The notes: a model not told the origin generated them from the sequence alone. A stretch of DNA of 64,000 nucleotides from Candidatus Versatilivorator sp. (GCA_965207735.1 OZ242296.1:2304001-2368000), one strand, 5' to 3'. Shown: positions 6,058 through 51,011, counted from the first letter of the stretch. Numbers and translations are program-made.

Positions 6058-6245
6058 ACCCACGAGGGATTGTAGATTGCTGTCGCCGCCTACGCGGCTC
6101 GGACTCTTACGCTAAGCTTTCCATGGGCTTACGCCCACGGCTACCTGCTGCCGCGGCTTCGCCGCTCTACTGGAACCCGGGCTGGCGCCCGGGGACTCAT
6201 CATTTAGAGCCTTTTGCACAAGGCTCAACAATCAACAATTCATCG
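6058..6245. repeat. Nested repeat mosaic (A arm / REP-like hairpins / collapsed TIR palindrome / A arm)
   Basis: GGATTGTAGATTG, then CCATGGGCTTACGCCCACGGCTAC and CCCGGGCTGGCGCCCGGG, then GAGCCTTTTGCACAAGGCTC (6207-6226), then AACAATCAACAATTC. Confidence 0.75.
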
Positions 6246-6936: not shown

Positions 6937-6984
6937 GACACGACGAGTGAACCTCGCCGGTCCTGTCTAGCCGCCCCCCGCCCT

Positions 6985-7535
6985 ACCGGGCAGATCATAC
7001 GAGTGTGAAACAATCAGAAATCGGCCAATCCCTTTGCGACCTTGGTATCCCGTCGCGGTCAACCTCAACGCCTTAGTGCCCTTCGTCGTCCTTCGTGTGT
7101 CTTCGTGGATTCCTCTTTTTCTATTGTCTTTTTTCGGTTGTTTCAGACAAGCCGGGCCCCCGCCCTGGTGTGCGGATCATACATAGAGTGAAACAATCGG
7201 AAATCGACCAACCCTTCGCGAACATTGGTACCCCGTCGCGACCAACCTCAGCGCCTTAGTGCCCCTTCGTCGTTCTTCGTGCCCCTTGGTGGATAAGTCT
7301 TTTTTCTTTTGTCGTTTGTCGGTTGTTTCAGGCAAGCCGGGCCCCTGCCCTGCCGGGCAGATCATCCGAGGGTGAAACAATCAGAAATCGACAATCCCTT
7401 CGCGACCTTGGTATCCCGTCGCGGCCAACCTCAGCGCCTTAGTGGCCCTTCGTCGTTCTTCGTGCCCCTTCGTGGATAGGTCTTTTGTCTCTTGTCTTTT
7501 GTCGTTTGTCTTTTGTCGTTTGTTTCAGACAAGCC
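6985..7535 (+). repeat. Tandem array of three ~183-bp units (family B)
   Basis: Units begin (A/G)GATCAT at 6992, 7174 and 7359. Each has GTGAAACAATC.GAAATCG, a GCGAC...GTCGC hairpin, CCTTAGTGCCCTTCGTCG, a T-rich tract and the end GTTTCAG(A/G)CAAGCC. Confidence 0.9.
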
Positions 7536-15013: not shown

Positions 15014-15575
15014 GGCTTGTCTGAAACAAACGACAAACGAAAAAAGGCAAAAGACAAAAGACCTATCCACGAAGGGGCACGAAGAACGACGAAGGGGCAC
15101 TAAGGCGCTGAGGTTAACCGCGACGGGGTACCAAGGTCGCGAAGGGTTGATCGATTTCTGATTGTTTCACTCTCGTATGATCCGCACACCGGAGCGGGGG
15201 CGGGACTTGTCTGAAACAACCGTCAAACGACAAAACGACAAAAGAAAAAGACTTTTCCACGAAGGGGCACGAAGAACGACAAAGGGGCACTAAGGCGCTG
15301 AGGTTGGCCGCGACGGGGTACCAAGCTCGTGAAGGGATGGTCGATTTCTGGTTGTTTCACTCCCGAATGATCCGCACACCAGGGCGGGGGCCGGACTTAC
15401 CTGAAACAAAAGAAAAAAGACAAAAGACTTATCCACGAAGGGGCACGAAGAACGACGAAGGGGCACTAAGGCGCTGAGGTTAACCGCGACGGGGTACCAA
15501 GGTCGCGAAGGGTTGATCGATTTCTGATTGTTTCACTCTCGTATGATCCGCACACCAGGGCGGGGGCGACACTTG
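15014..15575 (-). repeat. Tandem array of three family-B units (reverse orientation)
   Basis: Reverse complement of the 6985-7535 units, starting GGCTTGTCTGAAAC. Confidence 0.9.
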
Positions 15576-18567: not shown

Positions 18568-18582
18568 GAGCCTTTTGCAAAA
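18568..18582. mobile_element. Orphan family-H terminal repeat GAGCCTTTTGCAAAA
   Basis: Exact match to the left end of the LRR cassette at 23126. Confidence 0.6.
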
Positions 18583-18654
18583 TTCGTCGTGCAGCGCCGG
18601 GGACGTTTCACCTGCAGTCATCGGGCTGCCCGTGCATCCCTCGTCGCTTCCAGC

Positions 18655-21199: not shown

Positions 21200-22891
21200 T
21201 CAAGGCAGGGCGAACACGATCAGGGCGCTACCGCCCGGGAAGTCCTCCACCTCGGGCCAGAGTTGGGGCATGAGGCCGGCCACCGCCGACCCCCAGCCTG
21301 CCGGGACCGCGATGTACTGCCGGCCGTTCACGGCATAGCTGATGGGCGAGCCCCGGTGGCCCGAGCCCGTGTTGAAGCTCCACAGCTTCTTGCCGGTTTC
21401 GGCATCGAGGGCGAAGAACTCTCCCTCGGGATCGCCGGTGAAGACCAGGTTGCCGCCGGTCGCCACCGCCGAGGCCAGCAAGGGATACTTGGATTGGTAG
21501 CTCCATTTCTTCTCCCCGGTCAGCGGATCCAGGGCGTCGAGATGGCTGCCGGCCTCTCCCTTGGGAGTAGGCTTGAGCTCGAACACCCCTCCGAAAAAGG
21601 TCTCGCCCGGCCTGGGGTCCTCCTTCTGCACGGTGAGGGTCTGACACCACTCGATGCCGGTGTTGTAGAACAGCCCCGTCTTGGGGCTGTAGGCCCCGTG
21701 GTTCCAGCTTCGGGCCCCGCCGATGGCCGGGCAGACCAGGGTGGGCTTCCCCACCTCGGGCTCCATCCGTCCCAGCAGCTTCCCGGTCGAATCGATCCCC
21801 GTGATCCAGTTGAGGTTTTCGACGAAGCGCCAGGCGCCGATGAACTCTCCGTTGGTCCGGTCCAGGACCCAGGTGTACCCGCCCTTGTTGGGATTGATCA
21901 GGAGCTTGCGTTTCTTGCCGTTGACCGGCAGGTCGATCAACACGCATTCGTAGGCGGTATCCCAGTCCCAGACGTCATGGGGAATCTGCTGGTAATACCA
22001 CTTCAACTCCCCGCTGTCGGCATCCAGGGCTACGATGGAATCGGTGTAGAGGTTGTCCCCGGTCCGGTCTCCTCCGTAGAAGTCGGCGGCAGGATTGCCC
22101 ACTCCCCAGTAGATCAGGTTCAACTCCGGATCGTAGGAGCCGGTCATCCAGGTGGCCCCGCCACCGTATTTCCAACTGTCCCCCTTCCAGGTTTCGTGGC
22201 CCTTTTCTCCCGGTCCGGGGATGGTCCAGAACTGCCAGGCCCGCCGGCCGGTCCTGGCGTCGAAGGCGTTCAGATAGCCCCGATGGGCCGAATCTCCCCC
22301 GGTGACCCCGACCACGACCTTGTCCTTGACCACCAGAGGTGCGCCGGTGATGTTGCAGCCGCACTGCTGCATGTTCTCGATCTCGACGTTCCAGACCTCC
22401 TCTCCGGTCTTGGCGTCCAGCGCCACCAGCCGGTTGTCGATGGTCCCCATGAAGACCAGGCCGTGGCCGAGAGCCACTCCCCGGTTCCAGGGACCGTAGA
22501 GAAGGCCGAAGTCCTTGGGCTCGGGATGGTAGTAGTGCCAGATCTCCTTGCCGGTGACGGCATCCAGCGCGAAGACCCGATTCCAGGGGGTGGTGATGTA
22601 CATGACTCCATCCGCCACCAGGGGAGTGCAGGAAAAACCGCCATCCACCTTGCCCGTCTGAAAGATCCAGACCGGCGCCAGCCGCTTCACGTTCTCCCGA
22701 TTGATCTGGTCCAACGGACTGTAGCGCCAGGCGTCATAGGTCCCGGAATAGGTCAGCCAGTTCTGCGGCTCCTTGGACGCCTCGATCAAGCGCCTGGAAT
22801 CGACGGTTTCGGCCGAAGCAATCGGATAGAATCCAATCGACAACAGCAACAGGATTGAGGCGCTGAGCGCCCAAGCGGGTTTGGCGGACAT
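21200..22891 (-). CDS. PQQ-dependent dehydrogenase family (methanol/ethanol-type beta-propeller)
   Basis: Signal peptide, RYSPLDQIN, TPLVADGVMY, ALDA.TG..W repeats, GGGATW.TGSYDPELNLIYWG.GNP, HDVWDWD and SPISY.VNGRQYIAV. Confidence 0.92.
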   Translation of the reverse strand: MSAKPAWALSASILLLLSIGFYPIASAETVDSRRLIEASKEPQNWLTYSGTYDAWRYSPLDQINRENVKRLAPVWIFQTGKVDGGFSCTPLVADGVMYITTPWNRVFALDAVTGKEIWHYYHPEPKDFGLLYGPWNRGVALGHGLVFMGTIDNRLVALDAKTGEEVWNVEIENMQQCGCNITGAPLVVKDKVVVGVTGGDSAHRGYLNAFDARTGRRAWQFWTIPGPGEKGHETWKGDSWKYGGGATWMTGSYDPELNLIYWGVGNPAADFYGGDRTGDNLYTDSIVALDADSGELKWYYQQIPHDVWDWDTAYECVLIDLPVNGKKRKLLINPNKGGYTWVLDRTNGEFIGAWRFVENLNWITGIDSTGKLLGRMEPEVGKPTLVCPAIGGARSWNHGAYSPKTGLFYNTGIEWCQTLTVQKEDPRPGETFFGGVFELKPTPKGEAGSHLDALDPLTGEKKWSYQSKYPLLASAVATGGNLVFTGDPEGEFFALDAETGKKLWSFNTGSGHRGSPISYAVNGRQYIAVPAGWGSAVAGLMPQLWPEVEDFPGGSALIVFALP

Positions 22892-23011
22892 GGGAATCTC
22901 CGATTTCCGGATCGTGGCCGGGGATGGTTTCAACCGGTTACGTCATCTGGGGAGCTATCACTAGCACTTCCAGGCCGAAGCTGTCAATGAAGGGGGGTGT
23001 GCGGAGGGTTG

Positions 23012-23125
23012 TCCACGAAGGAACACATTGGGATTGTAGATTGTAGATTGTGGATTTAAGTCGGATTCAAGGCGGCATCGGTTGCCGTCGCTTCTCAATC
23101 TACAGTCAGAAATCAACAATCAACA
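23012..23125. repeat. Family E+A element; the right arm is interrupted by the LRR cassette
   Basis: CCACGAAGG...GGATTGTAGATTGTAGATTGTGGAT...AATCAACAATCAACA; the arm resumes as AATCAACAATTC at 26982. Confidence 0.75.
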
Positions 23126-26100
23126 GAGCCTTTTGCAAAAGCTCCCCCGCCCCACGATTTCTTTGGACAGTGATTTGATAACCTGTATAAGAAGCTACAG
23201 GAGAGGAGGAACAGGCTATGTCCAGAGGAAGCAATGGGGCAGGTGGGTGTTATCTGTCCAAGAAATCGCGGGCGGTACATGGGGTACACGGAATGAGGCG
23301 TCAGGCGATTTGGAAAGAATGGGTTTCTTGTATCGGGGCCAGGTCGGGATGGATTCTCACGGCAGGCCTGATTCTGGTGGGCAGCAGTCCGCCCCTGCTG
23401 GGCTGCGATGACGGAATGGCTGTGCCGGATCCGGAGAACAACCCCGGTTTGGTGGCGGACTGCAAGGCCCTAATGGCAGCTCGTGACAAACTGGACGGTA
23501 ATGATCGCCTGAACTGGGATGCCGATTTTGTTATCGAATCCTGGGATGGCATCACAGTTTCGGGATCGCCACCTCGTGTAACCGGATTGTCAATTTCACC
23601 TCTGCACATTTCAGGGGAGATCCCGCCAGAGCTGGGTCAACTATCCCACCTGACTGATTTATACCTGGCCGGCAGCCTTATTTCTCGACACTTTCTGACG
23701 GGAGAGATCCCTCCCGAGTTGGGACAACTTGCCCGTTTGAAGACTTTGTACCTCAACGACAATTTACTCACGGGACCGATTCCGCCTGAGTTGGGCCAAC
23801 TGTCTCAGTTGATTGCCTTGAATCTCGGCAGCAACCAGCTCACAGGACCGATCCCTCCCGAGTTGGGCAATTTGTCCCGCTTGGAGGGACTCCATCTCTG
23901 GACGAACCAACTCTCGGGGGAAATCCCAAGGGAACTGGGGCAACTGGTCGAGCTGAGGGAGTTGACCCTCGGCGGCAACCACTTGACAGGAGTGATCCCC
24001 CTCGAGTTGGGACAACTGTCCCAGCTCGGGTGGTTGGACATCGGCTTCAACCAGTTGACGGGAGCAATTCCGCCCGAGATGGGCCAACTATCCCGTCTGG
24101 GACGGTTGTCTCTCCGCAACAACCAACTGACGGGAGTGATTCCGGTGGAATTGGGTCAGCTTCCCCTGCTGGGATGGTTTTACGTTTCTGACAATCAGCT
24201 AAGCGGGGAGATCCCAACGGAACTGGGTCAACTCCCTCGACTGCGGGAATTGGATCTCTCCAACAACCGGCTACGGGGGAATATACCGTTGACCTTGGGT
24301 CAGCTGACCAACCTGGAGAGGTTGTCCCTCGCCGGCAATCAGTTTACGGGCGAGATCCTGGCAGAACTGAGTCAACTGTCCCATCTGAAGGAATTGCGTC
24401 TTTCCAACAACCGGCTCCAGGGGAAAATACCGTCGTATCTAGGTCAGCTGACCAACCTGGAGGAGTTGTCGCTTGCCGGCAACCAGCTCGAGGGAAAGAT
24501 ACCCGTAGAACTAAGTCAACTGTCGGTGCTTGGCTTATTGGATCTCTCCAACAATCAACTGAGTGGCGAGATCCCGGCAGAGTTGAGTCAATTGACCCTC
24601 TTGCAGACTCTTCTCCTCTCCGGCAACCGGCTCACGGGAGGCATCCCAAAGGAACTCGGCAAGCTGCCCCAGTTGTGGGGTCTATACCTCGACAACAACC
24701 AGTTGGCCGGAATGATCCCGCCCGAGTTGGGCCAACTGTCCCTCGTGATACTGCACTTACAGCACAACAAACTGACAGGTTCGATCCCGGCAGAGCTGGG
24801 CCAACTGTCCAATCTAAGGGAGTTCAGCTTCCGGGGTAACCTGTTGACGGGCTCGGTCCCATCGGAGCTGGGCCATCTGCCCGATGTCTACGTGTTGAAC
24901 CTGGCCGCGACTCGGACGGCTGCGGACCGGATCGAGGTCAGCTGGGACGATCCGGGGGACACCACCGTCAGTTACGAGTATCGACTTCTGGATACGACAC
25001 GTACCTGGACGGAATGGTCGCTGATCGAACACCCGGAGACGACGCTGAGGAGGGGTGACGGACACGCGATAGAGTGGACGTTGGCAGTCCTGCCCACCAA
25101 CGTAACCTATCGTGCAATTCAGATCAGGGTGAGCAACGCAAAGGGTTCCTATACGTCGAATGCCGGGGTGAGACACTTGGTAACTGTTGCATCCGGGGAC
25201 GCTGATCCGACGGAGGGAAGCTTGTTCGTTCCCGTGCTGCTGACCTCGGCCGGGCGCAGCAACGCCTACTTCACCTCGGAGCTGACCCTGACCAACCGGG
25301 GGACCGAGGAGGCCACCCTCCACTACACCTACAGGGCCCATGCGGGGGGCGGAAGCGGAACGGCCACCGACAGGCTGGCTCCGGGGAGCCAGAGAATCCA
25401 GTCAGACGCCATCGGCTACCTCACCGGCCTGGGCATTCCCATTCCCGGCTCCGGAAACCGCATCGGGACCCTCAGAGTGGATGTGTCGGGGTCTTCCCGG
25501 GTGAGTCTGACCACGCGGACCACCTCCGGCGTGCCCGACGGACGCGCCGGCCTGGCTTATCCCGGCATTGCCGAAGATGAAGGCTTCCAGGAAGCGGTCT
25601 ATCTGTGCGGGCTGCGCGAGAACACCCAGGACCGCTCCAACCTGGCTGTCCAGAACATGGGAGCCTCCGAAGACGGTCCCATTACCCTGAGAACCACCGT
25701 CTTTTCCGGAGAGGCGGACGACACCGTCCCCCGCGTCCTGGGGGACCTGGAACTGAAACCGGGAGAGTTCCACCAGTACAATCAAGTGCTGAAAGCGGTG
25801 GGCAGTCCGGCCCAGGGCTACGTGAAGGTGGAGAAGGTCGACGGAGATGCTCCCTTCTACGTCTACGGGGTCATCAACGACAACTTCAACTCCGACGGCT
25901 CCTTCGTCTTTCCCCTGACCGGGTCCTCCCTGGTGGGCAGGAGCGGACAGACCCTGCCGGTCATCATCGAGACAGGCTCCTTCCAGAGCGAGCTGACCCT
26001 GACCAACTTCTCGGCCTCGGAGAAAACCGTCGATTTCCGCTTTGTGGCCGATGCCGTCGACACGGGCGACGACACGGCCGCCTTCAGCCTGACGCTGAAG

Positions 26101-26981
26101 GCCGGGGAGCAGCGCGTGCTGCCCGATATCGTGGAGGAACTGCGCCGGCGGGAAGTGGCCGGGATCGGTCCGTCGGGCCGAGCCTTCGTCGGTGCCCTGT
26201 TCGCCACCCCGGCCCAGGGAGACATGAGCGGCATTGTGATCGGGGCTCGGACAGGAGCTCCGGACCAGAGAGGCGGCCAGTACAGCCTCTTCTACAACGG
26301 GGTGCCCTATGGTTCGGCTTCGGTCGAAAGCGCCTGGATCTTCGGGCTGCAGCAGAACGCGGAGAACCGCAGCAACCTGGCCCTGGTCAATACCGGCGAA
26401 ATCGACGGCAGCTCCAGCACCTTTGAGATCACGATTTACGACGGCAGCGGGCGGTCTCAACCGAGAACCAGAAGTGTGACGCTCAGGCCCCGGCGATGGA
26501 CTCAGGTAAATGGAATTCTGGGCAATATCCGTCAAGGATACGTCCAGGTAAGGAAAACCTCGGGCAACAATCCGTTTGTCACCTATGGCGTGATCAATGA
26601 CGGCGGCAGGCCCGGGGAGCGCAGCGGGGACGGCGCTTTCCTGCTCAGCCAGAAATAGCTGTTCGCCCCGCGCAAAGGGATGTCCCTCGACCGGCAAGCC
26701 GGCTGTCTTCGGGTGCGGTTGCGACCAAGACCCTTTACGTTAACTCAACGGGAGCTGTTTCCGCTTGAGAGGGTCGCCACAGATTCCCGACAGGGCCGGA
26801 TAACACCCGCCTCAGGGCAGGCAGAGGGGAAGCTGTGCCCGCGCTCTGCAAGAACCTGCGATCCAGCCTTCAGATCCGGGGATTTGCGTTCAATAAGGTC
26901 CTTGCTGGCAGGCAACTGCCAGCAGAACCCCGATTGAGCTACGCCATTGTCATGCTCGATTCCAAATTTTGCAAAAGGCTC
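23126..26981. mobile_element. Non-autonomous TIR-bounded cargo cassette (family H) carrying an LRR gene
   Basis: Perfect 15-bp inverted repeats GAGCCTTTTGCAAAA (23126-23140) and TTTTGCAAAAGGCTC (26967-26981); no transposase inside. Confidence 0.7.
23218..26658 (+). CDS. Secreted/surface protein with about 17-18 plant-type LRRs, an FN3-like segment and an acidobacterial-type C-terminal region
   Basis: 24-aa repeats LxxNxLxGxIPxELGxLxxLxxL; N-cap W.GITV; C-terminal FVPVLLTSAG...FTSELTLTN and RSNLA motifs; strong RBS AGGAGAGGAGG. Confidence 0.9.
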   Translation: MSRGSNGAGGCYLSKKSRAVHGVHGMRRQAIWKEWVSCIGARSGWILTAGLILVGSSPPLLGCDDGMAVPDPENNPGLVADCKALMAARDKLDGNDRLNWDADFVIESWDGITVSGSPPRVTGLSISPLHISGEIPPELGQLSHLTDLYLAGSLISRHFLTGEIPPELGQLARLKTLYLNDNLLTGPIPPELGQLSQLIALNLGSNQLTGPIPPELGNLSRLEGLHLWTNQLSGEIPRELGQLVELRELTLGGNHLTGVIPLELGQLSQLGWLDIGFNQLTGAIPPEMGQLSRLGRLSLRNNQLTGVIPVELGQLPLLGWFYVSDNQLSGEIPTELGQLPRLRELDLSNNRLRGNIPLTLGQLTNLERLSLAGNQFTGEILAELSQLSHLKELRLSNNRLQGKIPSYLGQLTNLEELSLAGNQLEGKIPVELSQLSVLGLLDLSNNQLSGEIPAELSQLTLLQTLLLSGNRLTGGIPKELGKLPQLWGLYLDNNQLAGMIPPELGQLSLVILHLQHNKLTGSIPAELGQLSNLREFSFRGNLLTGSVPSELGHLPDVYVLNLAATRTAADRIEVSWDDPGDTTVSYEYRLLDTTRTWTEWSLIEHPETTLRRGDGHAIEWTLAVLPTNVTYRAIQIRVSNAKGSYTSNAGVRHLVTVASGDADPTEGSLFVPVLLTSAGRSNAYFTSELTLTNRGTEEATLHYTYRAHAGGGSGTATDRLAPGSQRIQSDAIGYLTGLGIPIPGSGNRIGTLRVDVSGSSRVSLTTRTTSGVPDGRAGLAYPGIAEDEGFQEAVYLCGLRENTQDRSNLAVQNMGASEDGPITLRTTVFSGEADDTVPRVLGDLELKPGEFHQYNQVLKAVGSPAQGYVKVEKVDGDAPFYVYGVINDNFNSDGSFVFPLTGSSLVGRSGQTLPVIIETGSFQSELTLTNFSASEKTVDFRFVADAVDTGDDTAAFSLTLKAGEQRVLPDIVEELRRREVAGIGPSGRAFVGALFATPAQGDMSGIVIGARTGAPDQRGGQYSLFYNGVPYGSASVESAWIFGLQQNAENRSNLALVNTGEIDGSSSTFEITIYDGSGRSQPRTRSVTLRPRRWTQVNGILGNIRQGYVQVRKTSGNNPFVTYGVINDGGRPGERSGDGAFLLSQK

Positions 26982-27054
26982 AATCAACAATTCATTAAAT
27001 GGTAGCATGCTGGGCTTGGGCCGCACCCGCGACCAATCGAAGGAGCATTGACTC

Positions 27055-27801
27055 ATGGCTGAATTGGGCAGTTACCTGATCCTGTTCGCAGTCGGGTGCG
27101 TTGCCGGCACCCTGAACGTGGTGGCGGGAGGGGGATCCTTCCTCACGCTTCCGGTGCTGATCTTCCTGGGACTGCCGGCGACCGTGGCCAACGGGACCAA
27201 TCGGGTGGCGGTCCTGACCCAGAACGTGGGTGCCGTTTGGAGCTTTCATCGTCATGGGGTCATGGACTGGCGGAGCCTGCTTTGGGCGGCTTTGCCGGCG
27301 GCGCTGGGAGCCGCCCTGGGCGCTTGGGTGGCGCTTCGGATCGGGGATGAGACCTTCAAGAATACTCTGGCCTTTCTGATGGTGGCGGTGACGCTCTGGA
27401 CTCTGTGGGACCCTCTCAAGGGAAAGCTGGACTCGTCCACCGGCGGACGGTCCTGGTGGGTGATCGCCGGCGCCTTTTTCGTGGTTGGCTTCTACAGCGG
27501 ATTCGTCCAGGCCGGGGTGGGGTTTCTCATCCTGGCGGCCACCACCGTGGCGGGACTGGACCTGGTCAAGGGGAACGCGGTGAAGGTACTGCTACTCCTC
27601 GCCACCATGGTCGTATCGCTGGGAATCTTCGCTGCCGGCGGGCGCGTCGACTGGACCCTGGGATTAATCCTGGGAGCCGGAAACCTGGCCGGAGGATTGC
27701 TGGGGGTCAGGCTCACCGTCCTCAAGGGACACGGGTGGATCAAGAAGGTAGTGACAGCCACCGTCGTCCTGTTTGCCCTGCGGCTGTGGTTCTTCGAGTA
27801 G
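27055..27801 (+). CDS. TauE/SafE (TSUP) family membrane protein
   Basis: AGGGSFLTLP, ANGTNR and GFYSGFVQAGVG; about 8 TM segments. Confidence 0.88.
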   Translation: MAELGSYLILFAVGCVAGTLNVVAGGGSFLTLPVLIFLGLPATVANGTNRVAVLTQNVGAVWSFHRHGVMDWRSLLWAALPAALGAALGAWVALRIGDETFKNTLAFLMVAVTLWTLWDPLKGKLDSSTGGRSWWVIAGAFFVVGFYSGFVQAGVGFLILAATTVAGLDLVKGNAVKVLLLLATMVVSLGIFAAGGRVDWTLGLILGAGNLAGGLLGVRLTVLKGHGWIKKVVTATVVLFALRLWFFE

Positions 27802-27871
27802 CGAGTTGTCCGCCGGGCGCACACGGGACGCCGTGCGGAGTCGCAGCCAAGCCCTGTCGGAGGAAGCCTCC

Positions 27872-28690
27872 GTGGAAACTCCCCACATCGCTTCATTCCG
27901 CCGCAAAGTGACCCCAGGCAGAGTCCTTCTGGCGGTCATCCTTCTGTCATTGGCGGCGGTGGCGGTCCTGCTGATCCTCACCTACCTGAAGCTGACCGAC
28001 TTGAGCCGGGAGGTGGCCGGGCTCAGGAGGGTGACCGGAACCGTGGCCGAAACCGCCGAGAGCGCCAGGCGCCAGGCCGGCCGGGCCGAGGAGAACGCCC
28101 TCAAGGCAGCCCTGGGGCGCGCCCGGGCCGAGGAAGAGGCCTCGGAGGCGCGGGCGGTAGCCGCCAAGTCGAAGACCGAAGCGAGGGAGGCCAGGCAGGA
28201 AGCCGAGCGGGCCAGACAGGAGGCCGCCCGCATCCGCAAGGAGCGCGACGACAAGCTGGATGCCATGCAGCAGGCGCTCAGCCAACTGGTGGAGACCCGG
28301 CGCACCGCTCTGGGCCTCATCATGAACCTGGACAGCCAAGCCATCCAGTTCGATTTCGACAAGGCCGACCTGAAGTCCCACAACAAGGAACTGCTGAGCA
28401 AGATCGCCGGAATACTGCTGACCTCTGAGGGACACCACATCTTTGTCTACGGCCACACCGACGACGTGGGCACCCAGGCCTACAACCAGGACCTCTCAGA
28501 GCGTCGGGCCCAGGCAGTGCGGGACTACCTGGTGGCCTCCTTCATCGATCCGGCCGTCATCACGGCCGAGGGCTTCGGCAAGTCCAACCCCCTGGTGGAG
28601 GGGACCTCGACGGAAGCTCGAACCCGGAACCGTCGGGTCGAGATCGCCATCGTGGATACCGTGCTGGACTACCAGCAAAGGACGCGCTAG
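27872..28690 (+). CDS. OmpA-family peptidoglycan-binding protein with TM anchor and coiled coil
   Basis: FDFDKADL, GHTDDVG..YNQDLSERRA, GFGKSNP and NRRVEI. Confidence 0.88.
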   Translation: METPHIASFRRKVTPGRVLLAVILLSLAAVAVLLILTYLKLTDLSREVAGLRRVTGTVAETAESARRQAGRAEENALKAALGRARAEEEASEARAVAAKSKTEAREARQEAERARQEAARIRKERDDKLDAMQQALSQLVETRRTALGLIMNLDSQAIQFDFDKADLKSHNKELLSKIAGILLTSEGHHIFVYGHTDDVGTQAYNQDLSERRAQAVRDYLVASFIDPAVITAEGFGKSNPLVEGTSTEARTRNRRVEIAIVDTVLDYQQRTR

Positions 28691-29879: not shown

Positions 29880-30322
29880 CGGCTTGTGCTTCACTTGGGT
29901 TCACCGGCATTTGCTGCCGCCGCTCCGCGGCTCAATGGGTCGCCCGGGCGTTCGCCCGGGGATTATCAATTACTAAAAAGTCCGGCCCCTTCCCTGCCGG
30001 TCGGATCATCCGAGAGTGAAACAATCAGAAATCGGCCATCCCTTTGCGACCTTGGCATCCCGTCGCGGTTCACCTCAATGCCTTAGTGGCCCTTCGTGTG
30101 TCTTCGTGGATAACTCTTTTTTCGGTTGTTCCAGGCAAGCCGGGCCCCCGCCCTGGTGTGCGGATCATACATAGAGTGAAACAATCAGAAATCGATCAAC
30201 CCTTCGCGAACTTGGTACCCCGTCGCGGCCAACCTCAGCGCCTTAGTGGCCCTTCGTGGTCCTTCGTGCCCCTTCGTGGAAATGTCTTTTTCTTTTGTCT
30301 TTTTAGGTTGTTTCAGACAAGC
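29880..30322 (+). repeat. C/D REP module followed by two family-B units
   Basis: GCTTCACTTGGGTTCACCGGCATTTGCTG...CCCGGGCGTTCGCCCGGG, then GGATCAT at 30003 and 30162, ending GTTTCAGACAAGC. Confidence 0.85.
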
Positions 30323-30934
30323 GGGAAAGGGCCAGTTGCTTCTCGAAAAGGGCGAGTGTGGCGGAATCGTAGAGGCAGAAGACGACCTGCAGGAGCCGAC
30401 TCTCTCCTGAAAGGTAGTTGCAGGTCACCTCCAGCATGATTCGGGCGCATCTCTCGGCGGGAAAGCCGAAAATCCCGGTGCTGATGGCCGGGAAGGCGAT
30501 GTTCTTCATGCCTTTCGAGTCTGCCAGGACCAGGCTGTTCAGGGTCGCCCGGCCGAGCTTTTCGTCCTCGTCCCCTTCGCCCATGCGCGGCCACCGCGTG
30601 GATGACGTGGCGGGCCTTGAGATTGCCGCCGCCGGTGATGACGGCCCCGCCAACTTGGGTGCCGCCGATTCGGTAGAGGCAGAAGACGACCCACCGCGTG
30701 GATGACGTGGCGGGCCTTGAGATTGCCGCCGCCGGTGATGACGGCCCCGCCAACTTGGGTGCCGCCGATTCGGTCGCACTCTTGTTGGATGGAGTCCCCT
30801 CCTTTGCGGCGGATGGCCCCGGCGACACCTCCTCCCAGGATCAGTTCCCGGTTGGCGGCATTGACGACGGCATCGGTATCCTGCTCGGTGATGTCCCCCT
30901 GAATCAACAGAATCTCGGTGTCCTTGATTTTCAC
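30303..30934 (-). pseudogene. Macro-domain (ADP-ribose-binding, YmdB-like) gene disrupted by an internal duplication
   Basis: [22 protein letters not shown] and HVIHAVG in one frame; PRMG and AFPAISTGIFGFP in another. An 84-bp duplication occupies 30591-30674 and 30691-30774. Confidence 0.85.
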
Positions 30935-30944
30935 GCGCTTTCAG

Positions 30945-31199
30945 TTACTTCTTTTGCTCTGCCAATTCGCCCCGGGTGAATCCTTCAAACAGCCCTTCCA
31001 GCCGGGCCATGCGTTCTCGGAGATCGGCTACGTCACCACGGACATCGGCCACATCCCCTCGGACATTGCCGACGTCGTCTCGGACATGTTGAATTTCCAG
31101 CTTGAACTCCTGTCGGATATCGGATGAGACCTTCCATCCGAGGCTGACCAATGCCACGCCAAGAATGCCGATGGCAATCAACTCCGCGCTGATAATCAT
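30945..31199 (-). CDS. Small TM + heptad coiled-coil protein, copy 1 (84 aa)
   Basis: MIISAELIAIGILGVALV...DVGNVRG-DVADVRG-DVADLRERMARLEGLFEGF; AAGGAG RBS; near-identical copy at 35510. Confidence 0.8.
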   Translation of the reverse strand: MIISAELIAIGILGVALVSLGWKVSSDIRQEFKLEIQHVRDDVGNVRGDVADVRGDVADLRERMARLEGLFEGFTRGELAEQKK

Positions 31200-31559
31200 T
31201 GCTGATGCTCCTTTCACTCTGACGAACCTGCCGAGAGGGAGATCAGACAAGGCAAGGGGTTCATGTGCTGACGGATCACTTCGTTAGTGTACCACGCCGG
31301 CCGGGCTTGAAATGGGTGGATTCCTTTTCCCCCTGCCCGACTATTGGCGGATCCCACCTGTGCCTTCTCCAACCCCTTGGTGGCCCTTCGTCGTCCTTGG
31401 TGGCCCTTCGTGAATACCTCTTTTCTCTTGGTGGATTTCTTTTTGGAAGACGCAGCCGTCGCACACCCCGCGGCTGCTTCCGATCCCGGCGGGAACGTGT
31501 CACAATGGCGCCTCGAACCGGGTTCGGTTCGGACCTCCGACCGAATTTGCCCTCGAACC

Positions 31560-35395: not shown

Positions 35396-35509
35396 CTTGC
35401 AAGCCTGTCTTGCGTGCTACACTAACTGAGTGATCCGTCACCAAATGAACCCCTCGCCTGGTCTGATCTCCCTCTCGGCAGGCTCGTCAAAGTGGAAGGA
35501 GCGTCAGCA

Positions 35510-35743
35510 ATGAAAATAAGCGCGGAGTTGATTGCCATCGGCATTCTTGGCGTAGCATTGGTCAGCCTCGGATGGAAGGCCTCATTCGATATTCGACAGG
35601 AGTTCAAACTGGAAATTCAGCATGTCCGAGAGGACGTGGCCAATGTCCGAGGGGACGTCGCCGACCTCCGAGAACGCATGGCCCGGCTGGAAGGACTGTT
35701 TGAAGGATTCACCAGGGGCGAATTGGCAGAGCAAAAAAAGTAA
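35510..35743 (+). CDS. Small TM + heptad coiled-coil protein, copy 2 (77 aa)
   Basis: Near-identical to 30945-31199 but one heptad shorter; shares the upstream leader and TGnTACACT -10. Confidence 0.8.
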   Translation: MKISAELIAIGILGVALVSLGWKASFDIRQEFKLEIQHVREDVANVRGDVADLRERMARLEGLFEGFTRGELAEQKK

Positions 35744-50418: not shown

Positions 50419-51011
50419 AGTCGAGCCGCGAACGCGGCGCCAGCAAACCCCGGTGAGCCCACGTGAAGCACAGGGCAACGCAATGGCGTTTCTCACCTGC
50501 AATAACGCATCTTGAGCCGGCCTCCCTCAGAGCCGCGTAGCGGCGCCAGCAGGTAGCCGTGGGCGTCAGCCCATGGGAAACGCGCATCGGAAACGTAACG
50601 TACGGGAGTCGAGCCGCGAACGCGGCGCCAGCAAATGCCGGTGAGCCCACGTGAAGCACGGGCAACGCAATGGCGTTTCTCACCTGCAAAAAACGCATCT
50701 TCAGCCGGCTTCCCTTAGAGCCGCGTAGCGGCGCCAGCAGGTAGCCGTGGGCGTCAGCCCATGGGAAACGCGCATGGGAAACGTAACGTATCGGAGTCGA
50801 GCCGCGAATGCGGCGCCAGCAAATGCCGGTGAGCCCAAGTGAAGCGCAGGGCAACGCAACAGCGTTTCTCACCTGCGAAAACGCATCTTCAGCCGGCTTC
50901 CCCGAGAGCCGCGTAGCGGCGCCAGCACTTAGCCGTGGGCGTCAGCCCATGGGAAACGTGCATCGGAAACGTAACCGATTGGAGTCGAGCCGCGAATGCG
51001 GCGCCAGCAGG
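50419..51011 (+). repeat. Tandem array with exact 188-bp period (3 units plus a partial), BIME-like
   Basis: AGTCGAGCCGCG at 50419, 50607, 50795 and 50983. Each unit has two GAGCCGCG..GCGGCGCCAGCA hairpins and a (G)TAGCCGTGGGCGTCAGCCCATGG REP. Confidence 0.92.

Follow-up and report, generated by a model that had tools for sequence, protein, structure and literature searches.

The window analysed is a 64,000-nucleotide stretch of the complete 5.26-Mb genome of Candidatus Versatilivorator sp. (G000), which was compared with 13 relatives of the same genus, designated by their own G numbers. At 23126-26981 lies a 3,856-bp cassette, flanked by genes for a PQQ-dependent dehydrogenase and TauE. The cassette is enclosed by exact 15-bp inverted ends and sits inside a resident heptamer repeat, family A, which is broken at 23125, resumes at 26982 and runs to 26995. 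One long open reading frame (23218-26658) occupies the interior. A transposase is absent between the ends, where an 18-bp coding fragment and the first IS3 OrfA codons are left. An Rfam search of 22000-28000 gave 0 matches. The initial annotation had described perfect 15-bp inverted ends, a single enclosed gene with no transposase and a family-A arm that is cut and resumes 3.86 kb on, and all of this is confirmed at these coordinates. The insertion into this site is real. The features of the locus, with two outlying ends from the same window, are as follows.

6207-6226, no strand assigned: fused 20-bp palindromic end, the end of a separate repeat mosaic.
18568-18605, plus strand: lone truncated end of a MITE subfamily, with no partner that has a duplication.
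23031-23125, no strand assigned: family-A resident repeat with inverted heptamer arms, the part left of the insertion; G013 and G008 have this repeat in the corresponding place.
23118-23125, plus strand: left copy of the 8-bp duplication AATCAACA.
23126-23140, plus strand: 15-bp terminal inverted repeat on the left, with exactly the sequence of the active IS end.
23143-23279, plus strand: internally deleted IS3-family element, 137 bp, with a promoter-like stretch, an RBS and the ATG at 23218 (the OrfA start).
23293-26658, plus strand: passenger gene, encoding 1,121 aa when read from the likely native start, with a predicted signal-peptide-like N-terminus, 18 LRR units of about 24 aa each, a linker domain and a C-terminal module.
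25213-26655, plus strand: C-terminal module, about 480 aa, common to 38 G000 genes and predicted to be all-beta with four sandwich domains.
26659-26727, plus strand: 3' flank of the passenger gene, 69 bp, sharing 90% identity with the corresponding flank of the paralogue that ends at 1192280 of G000.
26745-26762, plus strand: 5' coding fragment of the IS transposase (IS bp 176-193; 18 of 18 with the G005 variant), with a microhomology joint to the transposase stop region.
26764-26981, plus strand: IS 3' remnant, including the right inverted repeat; an IS variant in G000 and G002 matches 26764-26912 at 93-95% identity.
26967-26981, plus strand: right inverted repeat, 15 bp, the terminal part of the IS 3' remnant.
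26982-26989, plus strand: right copy of AATCAACA, where the family-A repeat resumes.

Homologues of the passenger were found in Acidobacteria, Terriglobia and Candidatus Versatilivorator, and a sponge metagenome run holds a relative with 38 differences across 1,495 bp of the left flank. On these two grounds the lineage is taken as sponge-associated Acidobacteriota. The earlier view of an LRR passenger gene inserted in a resident repeat is supported.

Homologous LRR genes at five loci begin at the codon matching 23293, which makes 23293 the likely native start and 1,121 aa the likely length of the native protein. The signal-peptide-like character of the N-terminus is predicted from hydrophobicity and conservation only. 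NCBIfam LRR matches (XopAC, internalin and others) all fall far below cut-off, and the C-terminal module has no Pfam match. Folded as a single sequence the module is predicted poorly (pLDDT 44); the prediction is good with 24 sequences. Foldseek with the whole module returned no whole-fold match (TM at most 0.17), and the best VIA-align hit (Z = 11.8, TM1070) covers domain 1 only. The structure search covered the whole fold, and no new fold is claimed. No second copy of the passenger was found in G000, where the closest C-terminal paralogues are 85% identical or less. The lack of a copy above 85% in this module indicates that the gene arrived from elsewhere. LRR genes have different neighbourhoods in different species.

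The 15-mer at the cassette ends occurs 120 times exactly in G000 and 229 times when up to 2 mismatches are allowed. It is the terminus of a resident 1,487-bp IS present in 43 copies, 42 of them identical and 36 flanked by 4-bp duplications. This IS encodes an open 391-aa DDE frame, a cognate transposase that is available in trans. The G000 protein matches DDE_Tnp_1, DUF772 and DDE_Tnp_1_6 above Pfam cut-offs; its G011 relative has IS1182 as best profile (99 bits against a cut-off of 270), followed by IS5 models, all below cut-off. These data support the IS5/IS1182-like character first proposed for the ends, identify a resident IS with the same ends and provide the enzyme for the proposed mobilisation in trans.

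The left end of the cassette does not have TTC at positions 16-18, which 54 to 61 of 69 distinct ends keep; read on into the adjoining bases, it misses the fused 20-bp palindrome by one base. A 447- to 466-bp MITE of G004 ends in the fused palindrome, in which GGCTC follows the 15-bp end, and 3 of its sites show 4-bp duplications (12 fused sites examined), which argues that the 15-bp end can be used as a transposed end. The core TTTTGCAAAA is palindromic, so two ends share a direct repeat. Collapse between such shared repeats would give the fused form, and one fused form has a 4-bp duplication. Flanks lying in a repeat of at least 5 copies were found for 21 of the 43 IS copies, compared with 164 of 1,000 random sites and 142 of 600 A+T-rich sites, and A+T-rich repeat DNA is the preferred target. 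The repeat "safe harbours" of the initial annotation therefore need no special mechanism, the plain IS having the same preference.

The left interior consists of the first 99 bp of an IS3-family element (91/99 positions match a full 1,394-bp copy) fused to the last 38 bp (35/38). The family assignment comes from the full element, which has an OrfA/OrfB pair with an integrase-core OrfB. Its frames at L040, of 129 and 247 aa, both have NF033516 as best match, each alone below the cut-off for the fused protein. IS3-family elements have TG...CA ends on both sides and make a short target duplication. The right end of the relic's family finishes CA and the left end begins TC, and no consistent duplication was seen in the full copies examined by eye. 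No intact IS3 transposase of this type was found in G000, which gave one 54-aa match. The ATG at 23218 is in frame with the LRR gene, and the first codons from it are OrfA codons. The RBS and the TGGACA...TATAAG stretch, first read as the gene's own, sit in the IS3-family left end, which recurs at 9 other G000 sites and belongs to a second IS unrelated to the outer one; a sigma-70 scan of 22900-23400 returned 0 sites. The relic would give the passenger a promoter and, optionally, 25 additional codons at its start.

The right end was described at first as minimal. Its composition identifies 26745-26981 as a 237-bp internally deleted IS. The 18-bp coding fragment at 26745-26762 is otherwise confined, within G000, to the 43 IS copies, and the terminal 38 bp of the remnant are identical to the active IS at 35 of 38 positions. 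The 17 bases between the 69-bp 3' flank and 26745 were assigned to no part. An IS3-like end at this junction of the cargo was considered and is not supported: the resemblance is loose and by eye only, and the 69-bp flank occurs at 2 G000 sites and in 1 of 13 relatives.

No clean target duplication had been recognised at the locus. An exact 8-bp duplication, AATCAACA, is present on both flanks of the cassette. Removal of the cassette with one AATCAACA copy yields the allele of the relatives, with a gap-free alignment across the junction to G013, G008 and G004, and restores a four-heptamer arm, the commonest form (four units in 15 of 31 arms, five in 1 of 31). Eight base pairs is atypical for this IS, for which 4 bp is usual: among 75 IS- and MITE-sized pairs in G000, 47 duplications are 4 bp, 1 is 5 bp, 1 is 7 bp, 26 are 3 bp or less and none is 8 bp. 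Chance flank matches come more easily here because the target is a heptamer array. The left junction falls at a repeat position also used by a full IS copy (377484-378970 of G000) with the duplication AACA, a 4-mer that also served as target for a 377-bp element at this locus in G008.

The site has no LRR gene in 11 of the 13 same-genus genomes, in which the flanking genes are joined by a short gap (203-791 bp between anchors). The gene pair is inverted or separated in the remaining two, and no LRR gene is present in the flanks examined. This gap is a hotspot where relatives carry different repeats. G013 has the intact family-A repeat, and G008 has the family-A repeat with the 377-bp element, an independent insertion bounded by these same ends and by a 4-bp duplication. 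The site is also empty in both of the two runs from other samples, which cross it with a G002-type junction that has no repeat. An empty allele of the site is therefore present in relatives. Only the filled allele appears in the two runs from what is likely the source sample, tiled by identical pieces that span both junctions; neither a skip or excised allele nor a circle was seen in them, in contigs that drop rare variants. No donor site for the cassette was seen.

Non-IS ends in G000 are mostly MITEs. Among 43 adjacent inward pairs of such ends, 36 are no longer than 535 bp, including four 20-bp fused palindromes, and the cassette is the only 1-10 kb pair with a flanking duplication of at least 4 bp. 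Bracketing by ends alone is weak evidence because the ends are so common. The palindrome at 6207, taken earlier for an empty form of the cassette, is one of the 4 fused forms; the fused form exists as described, and the proposed empty allele was rejected since its flanks differ from the cassette site, the inner one matching G000 from 733957 onward. The orphan end noted at 18568 is also present, as one of the 229 ends with up to 2 mismatches, and was discarded as an alternative left end for lack of a duplication with 26981. A second candidate cassette in G000, at 733957-740077, has a 4-bp duplication; what it encloses is an integrase island flanked by direct GCGGCGAC repeats. The island is nested in a repeat whose uninterrupted form lies at 6066-6226 of the window.

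Exact ends in the relatives were listed completely for G002, G004, G009, G011 and G013, for 100 of 146 in G008 and for 100 of 201 in G005; G001 has none. Abundant ends and MITEs are found across the genus. A 2,231-bp pair in G004 (L096) with a 4-bp match was set aside as a chance pair around host genes including EF-P, its left end belonging to a 106-bp MITE with its own duplication. Two multi-kb pairs with duplications of at least 4 bp, L035 in G008 and L120 in G005, each have a second transposase nested inside, and L030 and L097 were rejected as cassettes because they are second transposases nested in IS shells.

The reading we favour, at a probability of about 0.55, is that this is a one-off mobile insertion cassette, assembled elsewhere through ordinary IS insertions and deletions and moved once in trans by the IS1182/IS5-like transposase of the 43-copy IS. 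This is the simplest path, since every step it needs is a common event. It builds on the anatomy, the 8-bp duplication, the empty site in relatives and the cognate transposase, from which we infer both the movement and the order of the steps. An IS3 element would have inserted just upstream of a resident LRR gene, a situation comparable to G005, where a homologous LRR gene begins 33 bp after an IS3 right end. An IS3 event would have trimmed an adjacent IS to its 15-bp tip, as at the tip-to-IS3 junction also present in G009 (2 of 14 genomes). An internally deleted IS would have lain just downstream of the LRR gene, and the outer ends could then have served as a composite for one transposition into the A+T-rich repeat. 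The atypical 8-bp duplication may be a consequence of the unusual left end. Movement of the whole unit is favoured by the duplication, which encloses the entire unit, and by its only intact mobile ends being active IS ends in a genome with no intact IS3 transposase of the relic's type. Against it stand the 8-bp length, the single copy, the left end without conserved positions 16-18, and the origin by nesting or chance of the other multi-kb pairs with a duplication that were examined.

A possible but less probable course is nested assembly in place, which accounts for the anatomy equally well. A deleted IS (a MITE) would have inserted first, an IS3-linked LRR segment would later have replaced its bp 16-175, and the unit would never have moved whole, its ends only resembling those of a cassette. 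The right part has both 5' and 3' IS sequence and only 23126 as its own left end, and nesting explains 733957-740077 of G000, L035 and L120. The recurrence of the end-to-IS3 junction in G009 fits as well, and IS3 ends that adjoin IS ends within shells of G009 and G011 favour assembly in place. However, no LRR-free shell with this internal junction was found in the 14 genomes, which does not show its absence, and the right junction of the cargo, with 17 unassigned bases and no IS3 end, needs a rarer one-ended or illegitimate event. The missing IS3 transposase in G000 also counts against this course, and the 8-bp duplication is left equally unexplained.

Two independent insertions at adjacent 4-bp heptamer sites (AATC and AACA), joined by recombination, would make the 8 bp two ordinary duplications side by side. 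Both 4-mers occur as duplications of full IS copies and this repeat was hit repeatedly, but the scheme is unlikely: it needs two alleles and recombination as well as a source for the gene, and neither single-insertion allele was seen at the site in relatives or runs. Quite improbable is the broader idea that in these sponge Acidobacteria the IS1182-like ends and MITE swarm act as a general capture device, in which genes of the 38-member surface-protein family caught between two ends, even a 15-bp tip, are relocated in trans with an IS3-derived promoter. If it were true, strains would swap expression-ready host-interaction genes into repeat-filled gaps, and this locus would be the first caught example.

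The gene-shuttling system proposed in the initial annotation is not supported by the wider survey. The passenger is the only one of the 38 G000 genes with the C-terminal module that is closely bracketed by ends, and no second copy of it was found. None of 14 homologous genes in 10 same-genus stretches is bracketed (some flanks are short), and two collection scans gave 12 and 6 homologous loci, all at 68% or below and free of bracketing ends. Among 26 candidate stretches from relatives, no non-mobile passenger was found between paired ends with a duplication, bar the chance pair around host genes. Essentially no other cargo is bracketed in G000 or these stretches, and the several passengers or sites of a dedicated shuttle were not found there, with the ends of G008 and G005 listed in part. 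Minimal ends that routinely carry host-interaction genes into repeat safe harbours are thus a very improbable account: one good example, the very abundant ends and MITEs of the genus and LRR neighbourhoods that vary by species speak for it, but these bracketing counts and the repeat preference shared by the plain IS speak against it.

Mobile insertion cassettes (MICs) are described as a passenger between IS-related inverted repeats without a transposase of its own, as in MIC231 of Bacillus cereus and the Xanthomonas TALE MICs, and only some are said to have a target duplication (PMC4337579). With its passenger, IS-related ends, missing transposase and cognate enzyme in trans, the unit described here fits the structural description in that source (PMC4337579). 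The Xanthomonas passengers are also host-interaction repeat proteins; in that account 45% of TALE genes are cassette-borne and the duplications are typical of the family, whereas here it is 1 of 38 genes and an atypical 8 bp (PMC4337579). The Aeromonas qnrS2 cassette, as reported, is similar: it derives from an internal deletion and has a second mini-element ahead of its passenger (PMC5444012). The ends of the unit described here are IS1182/IS5-like, not of the Tn3 or IS231 type. MITE-flanked composites differ in that the left end here is a bare 15-bp tip with no full MITE. Transporter IS elements (tIS) keep their own transposase, which the present unit does not have. In the accounts consulted, tIS and integron mobilisation units share with it IS-derived ends around an unrelated gene and an IS-derived promoter beside the passenger (PMC9330008, PMC5444012). 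No paper on this element was found in a search mostly confined to literature outside subscription.

Sponge symbionts are reported to be enriched in LRR proteins, to express them and to have many transposases (PMC5845141). The passenger is likewise an LRR protein, and a close relative of the host genome occurs in a sponge metagenome run; the protein's family moves in the genus without the ends described here. The locus is best read as one instance of a mobile cassette type already known, and not as a dedicated delivery system. As a single event of a known class it has small general weight, which would rise if conspecific strains had further passenger-bearing units. The unexplained 480-aa C-terminal module, present in 38 proteins, may be a more valuable lead than the cassette. 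The link between transposases and eukaryote-like genes is usually argued from gene counts, as in PMC5845141, and this locus offers a concrete, dissectable case of a eukaryote-like repeat gene reaching a new site in a sponge symbiont.

The interval between the PQQ-dependent dehydrogenase and TauE genes that holds the LRR-gene cassette (window 22994-27037) was compared with the corresponding interval in relatives (L002-L014), and in most species it contains a different repeat or element. The interval is a general hotspot. Elsewhere in the window, intergenic repeats of 180-190 bp form tandem arrays at 6967-7516, 15016-15571, 29978-30304 and 50419-51009 that represent at least two further repeat families. 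There is also an exact 84-bp tandem duplication at 30591-30774, and an inverted pair of 274 bp with 88% identity (31039-31312 and 35397-35670) encloses 4,084 bp.

Further features were located in the genome of the window (G000) and a same-genus relative (G009).
L040:1502-2895 (G009), full copy of an IS3-family element
window 23143-23279, plus about 25 ends elsewhere in G000, relics of the IS3-family element
G000 285320, 1554444, 2820668, 3863324, 3982158, 4928490 and 5020444, copies of the 1,487-bp IS1182/IS5-like element without a 4-bp duplication
G000:C1:733957-740077 (L130), integrase island that interrupts a REP-like repeat and has GCGGCGAC as a direct repeat on either side

The left end of the IS3-family element starts with TC rather than TG, its full copies show no consistent target duplication, and right-left end junctions are present (G000:4274735; run X3). 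The 4-bp duplication is missing from 7 of the 43 IS1182/IS5-like copies in G000, which may be a sign of rearrangements between identical copies. In the same-genus relative G004 (L095, L099, L102), one end of a MITE family of 447-466 bp is the fused 20-bp palindrome, and the family is flanked by 4-bp duplications. The uninterrupted form of the REP-like repeat that hosts the integrase island lies at window 6066-6226, and the 833-aa gene within the island has no Pfam match.

The LRR protein ends in a conserved 480-aa C-terminal module (window 25213-26655) that is found at 37 further G000 loci. Among 2,462 hits the N-terminal parts upstream of the module differ strongly, and the Pfam families represented there include LRR, trypsin, NHL and cadherin. 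The module itself has no match in Pfam. AlphaFold2 predicts four beta-sandwich domains (pLDDT 93), and comparison of the predicted structure with the PDB did not find a whole-fold match. The module possibly functions in export or anchoring.
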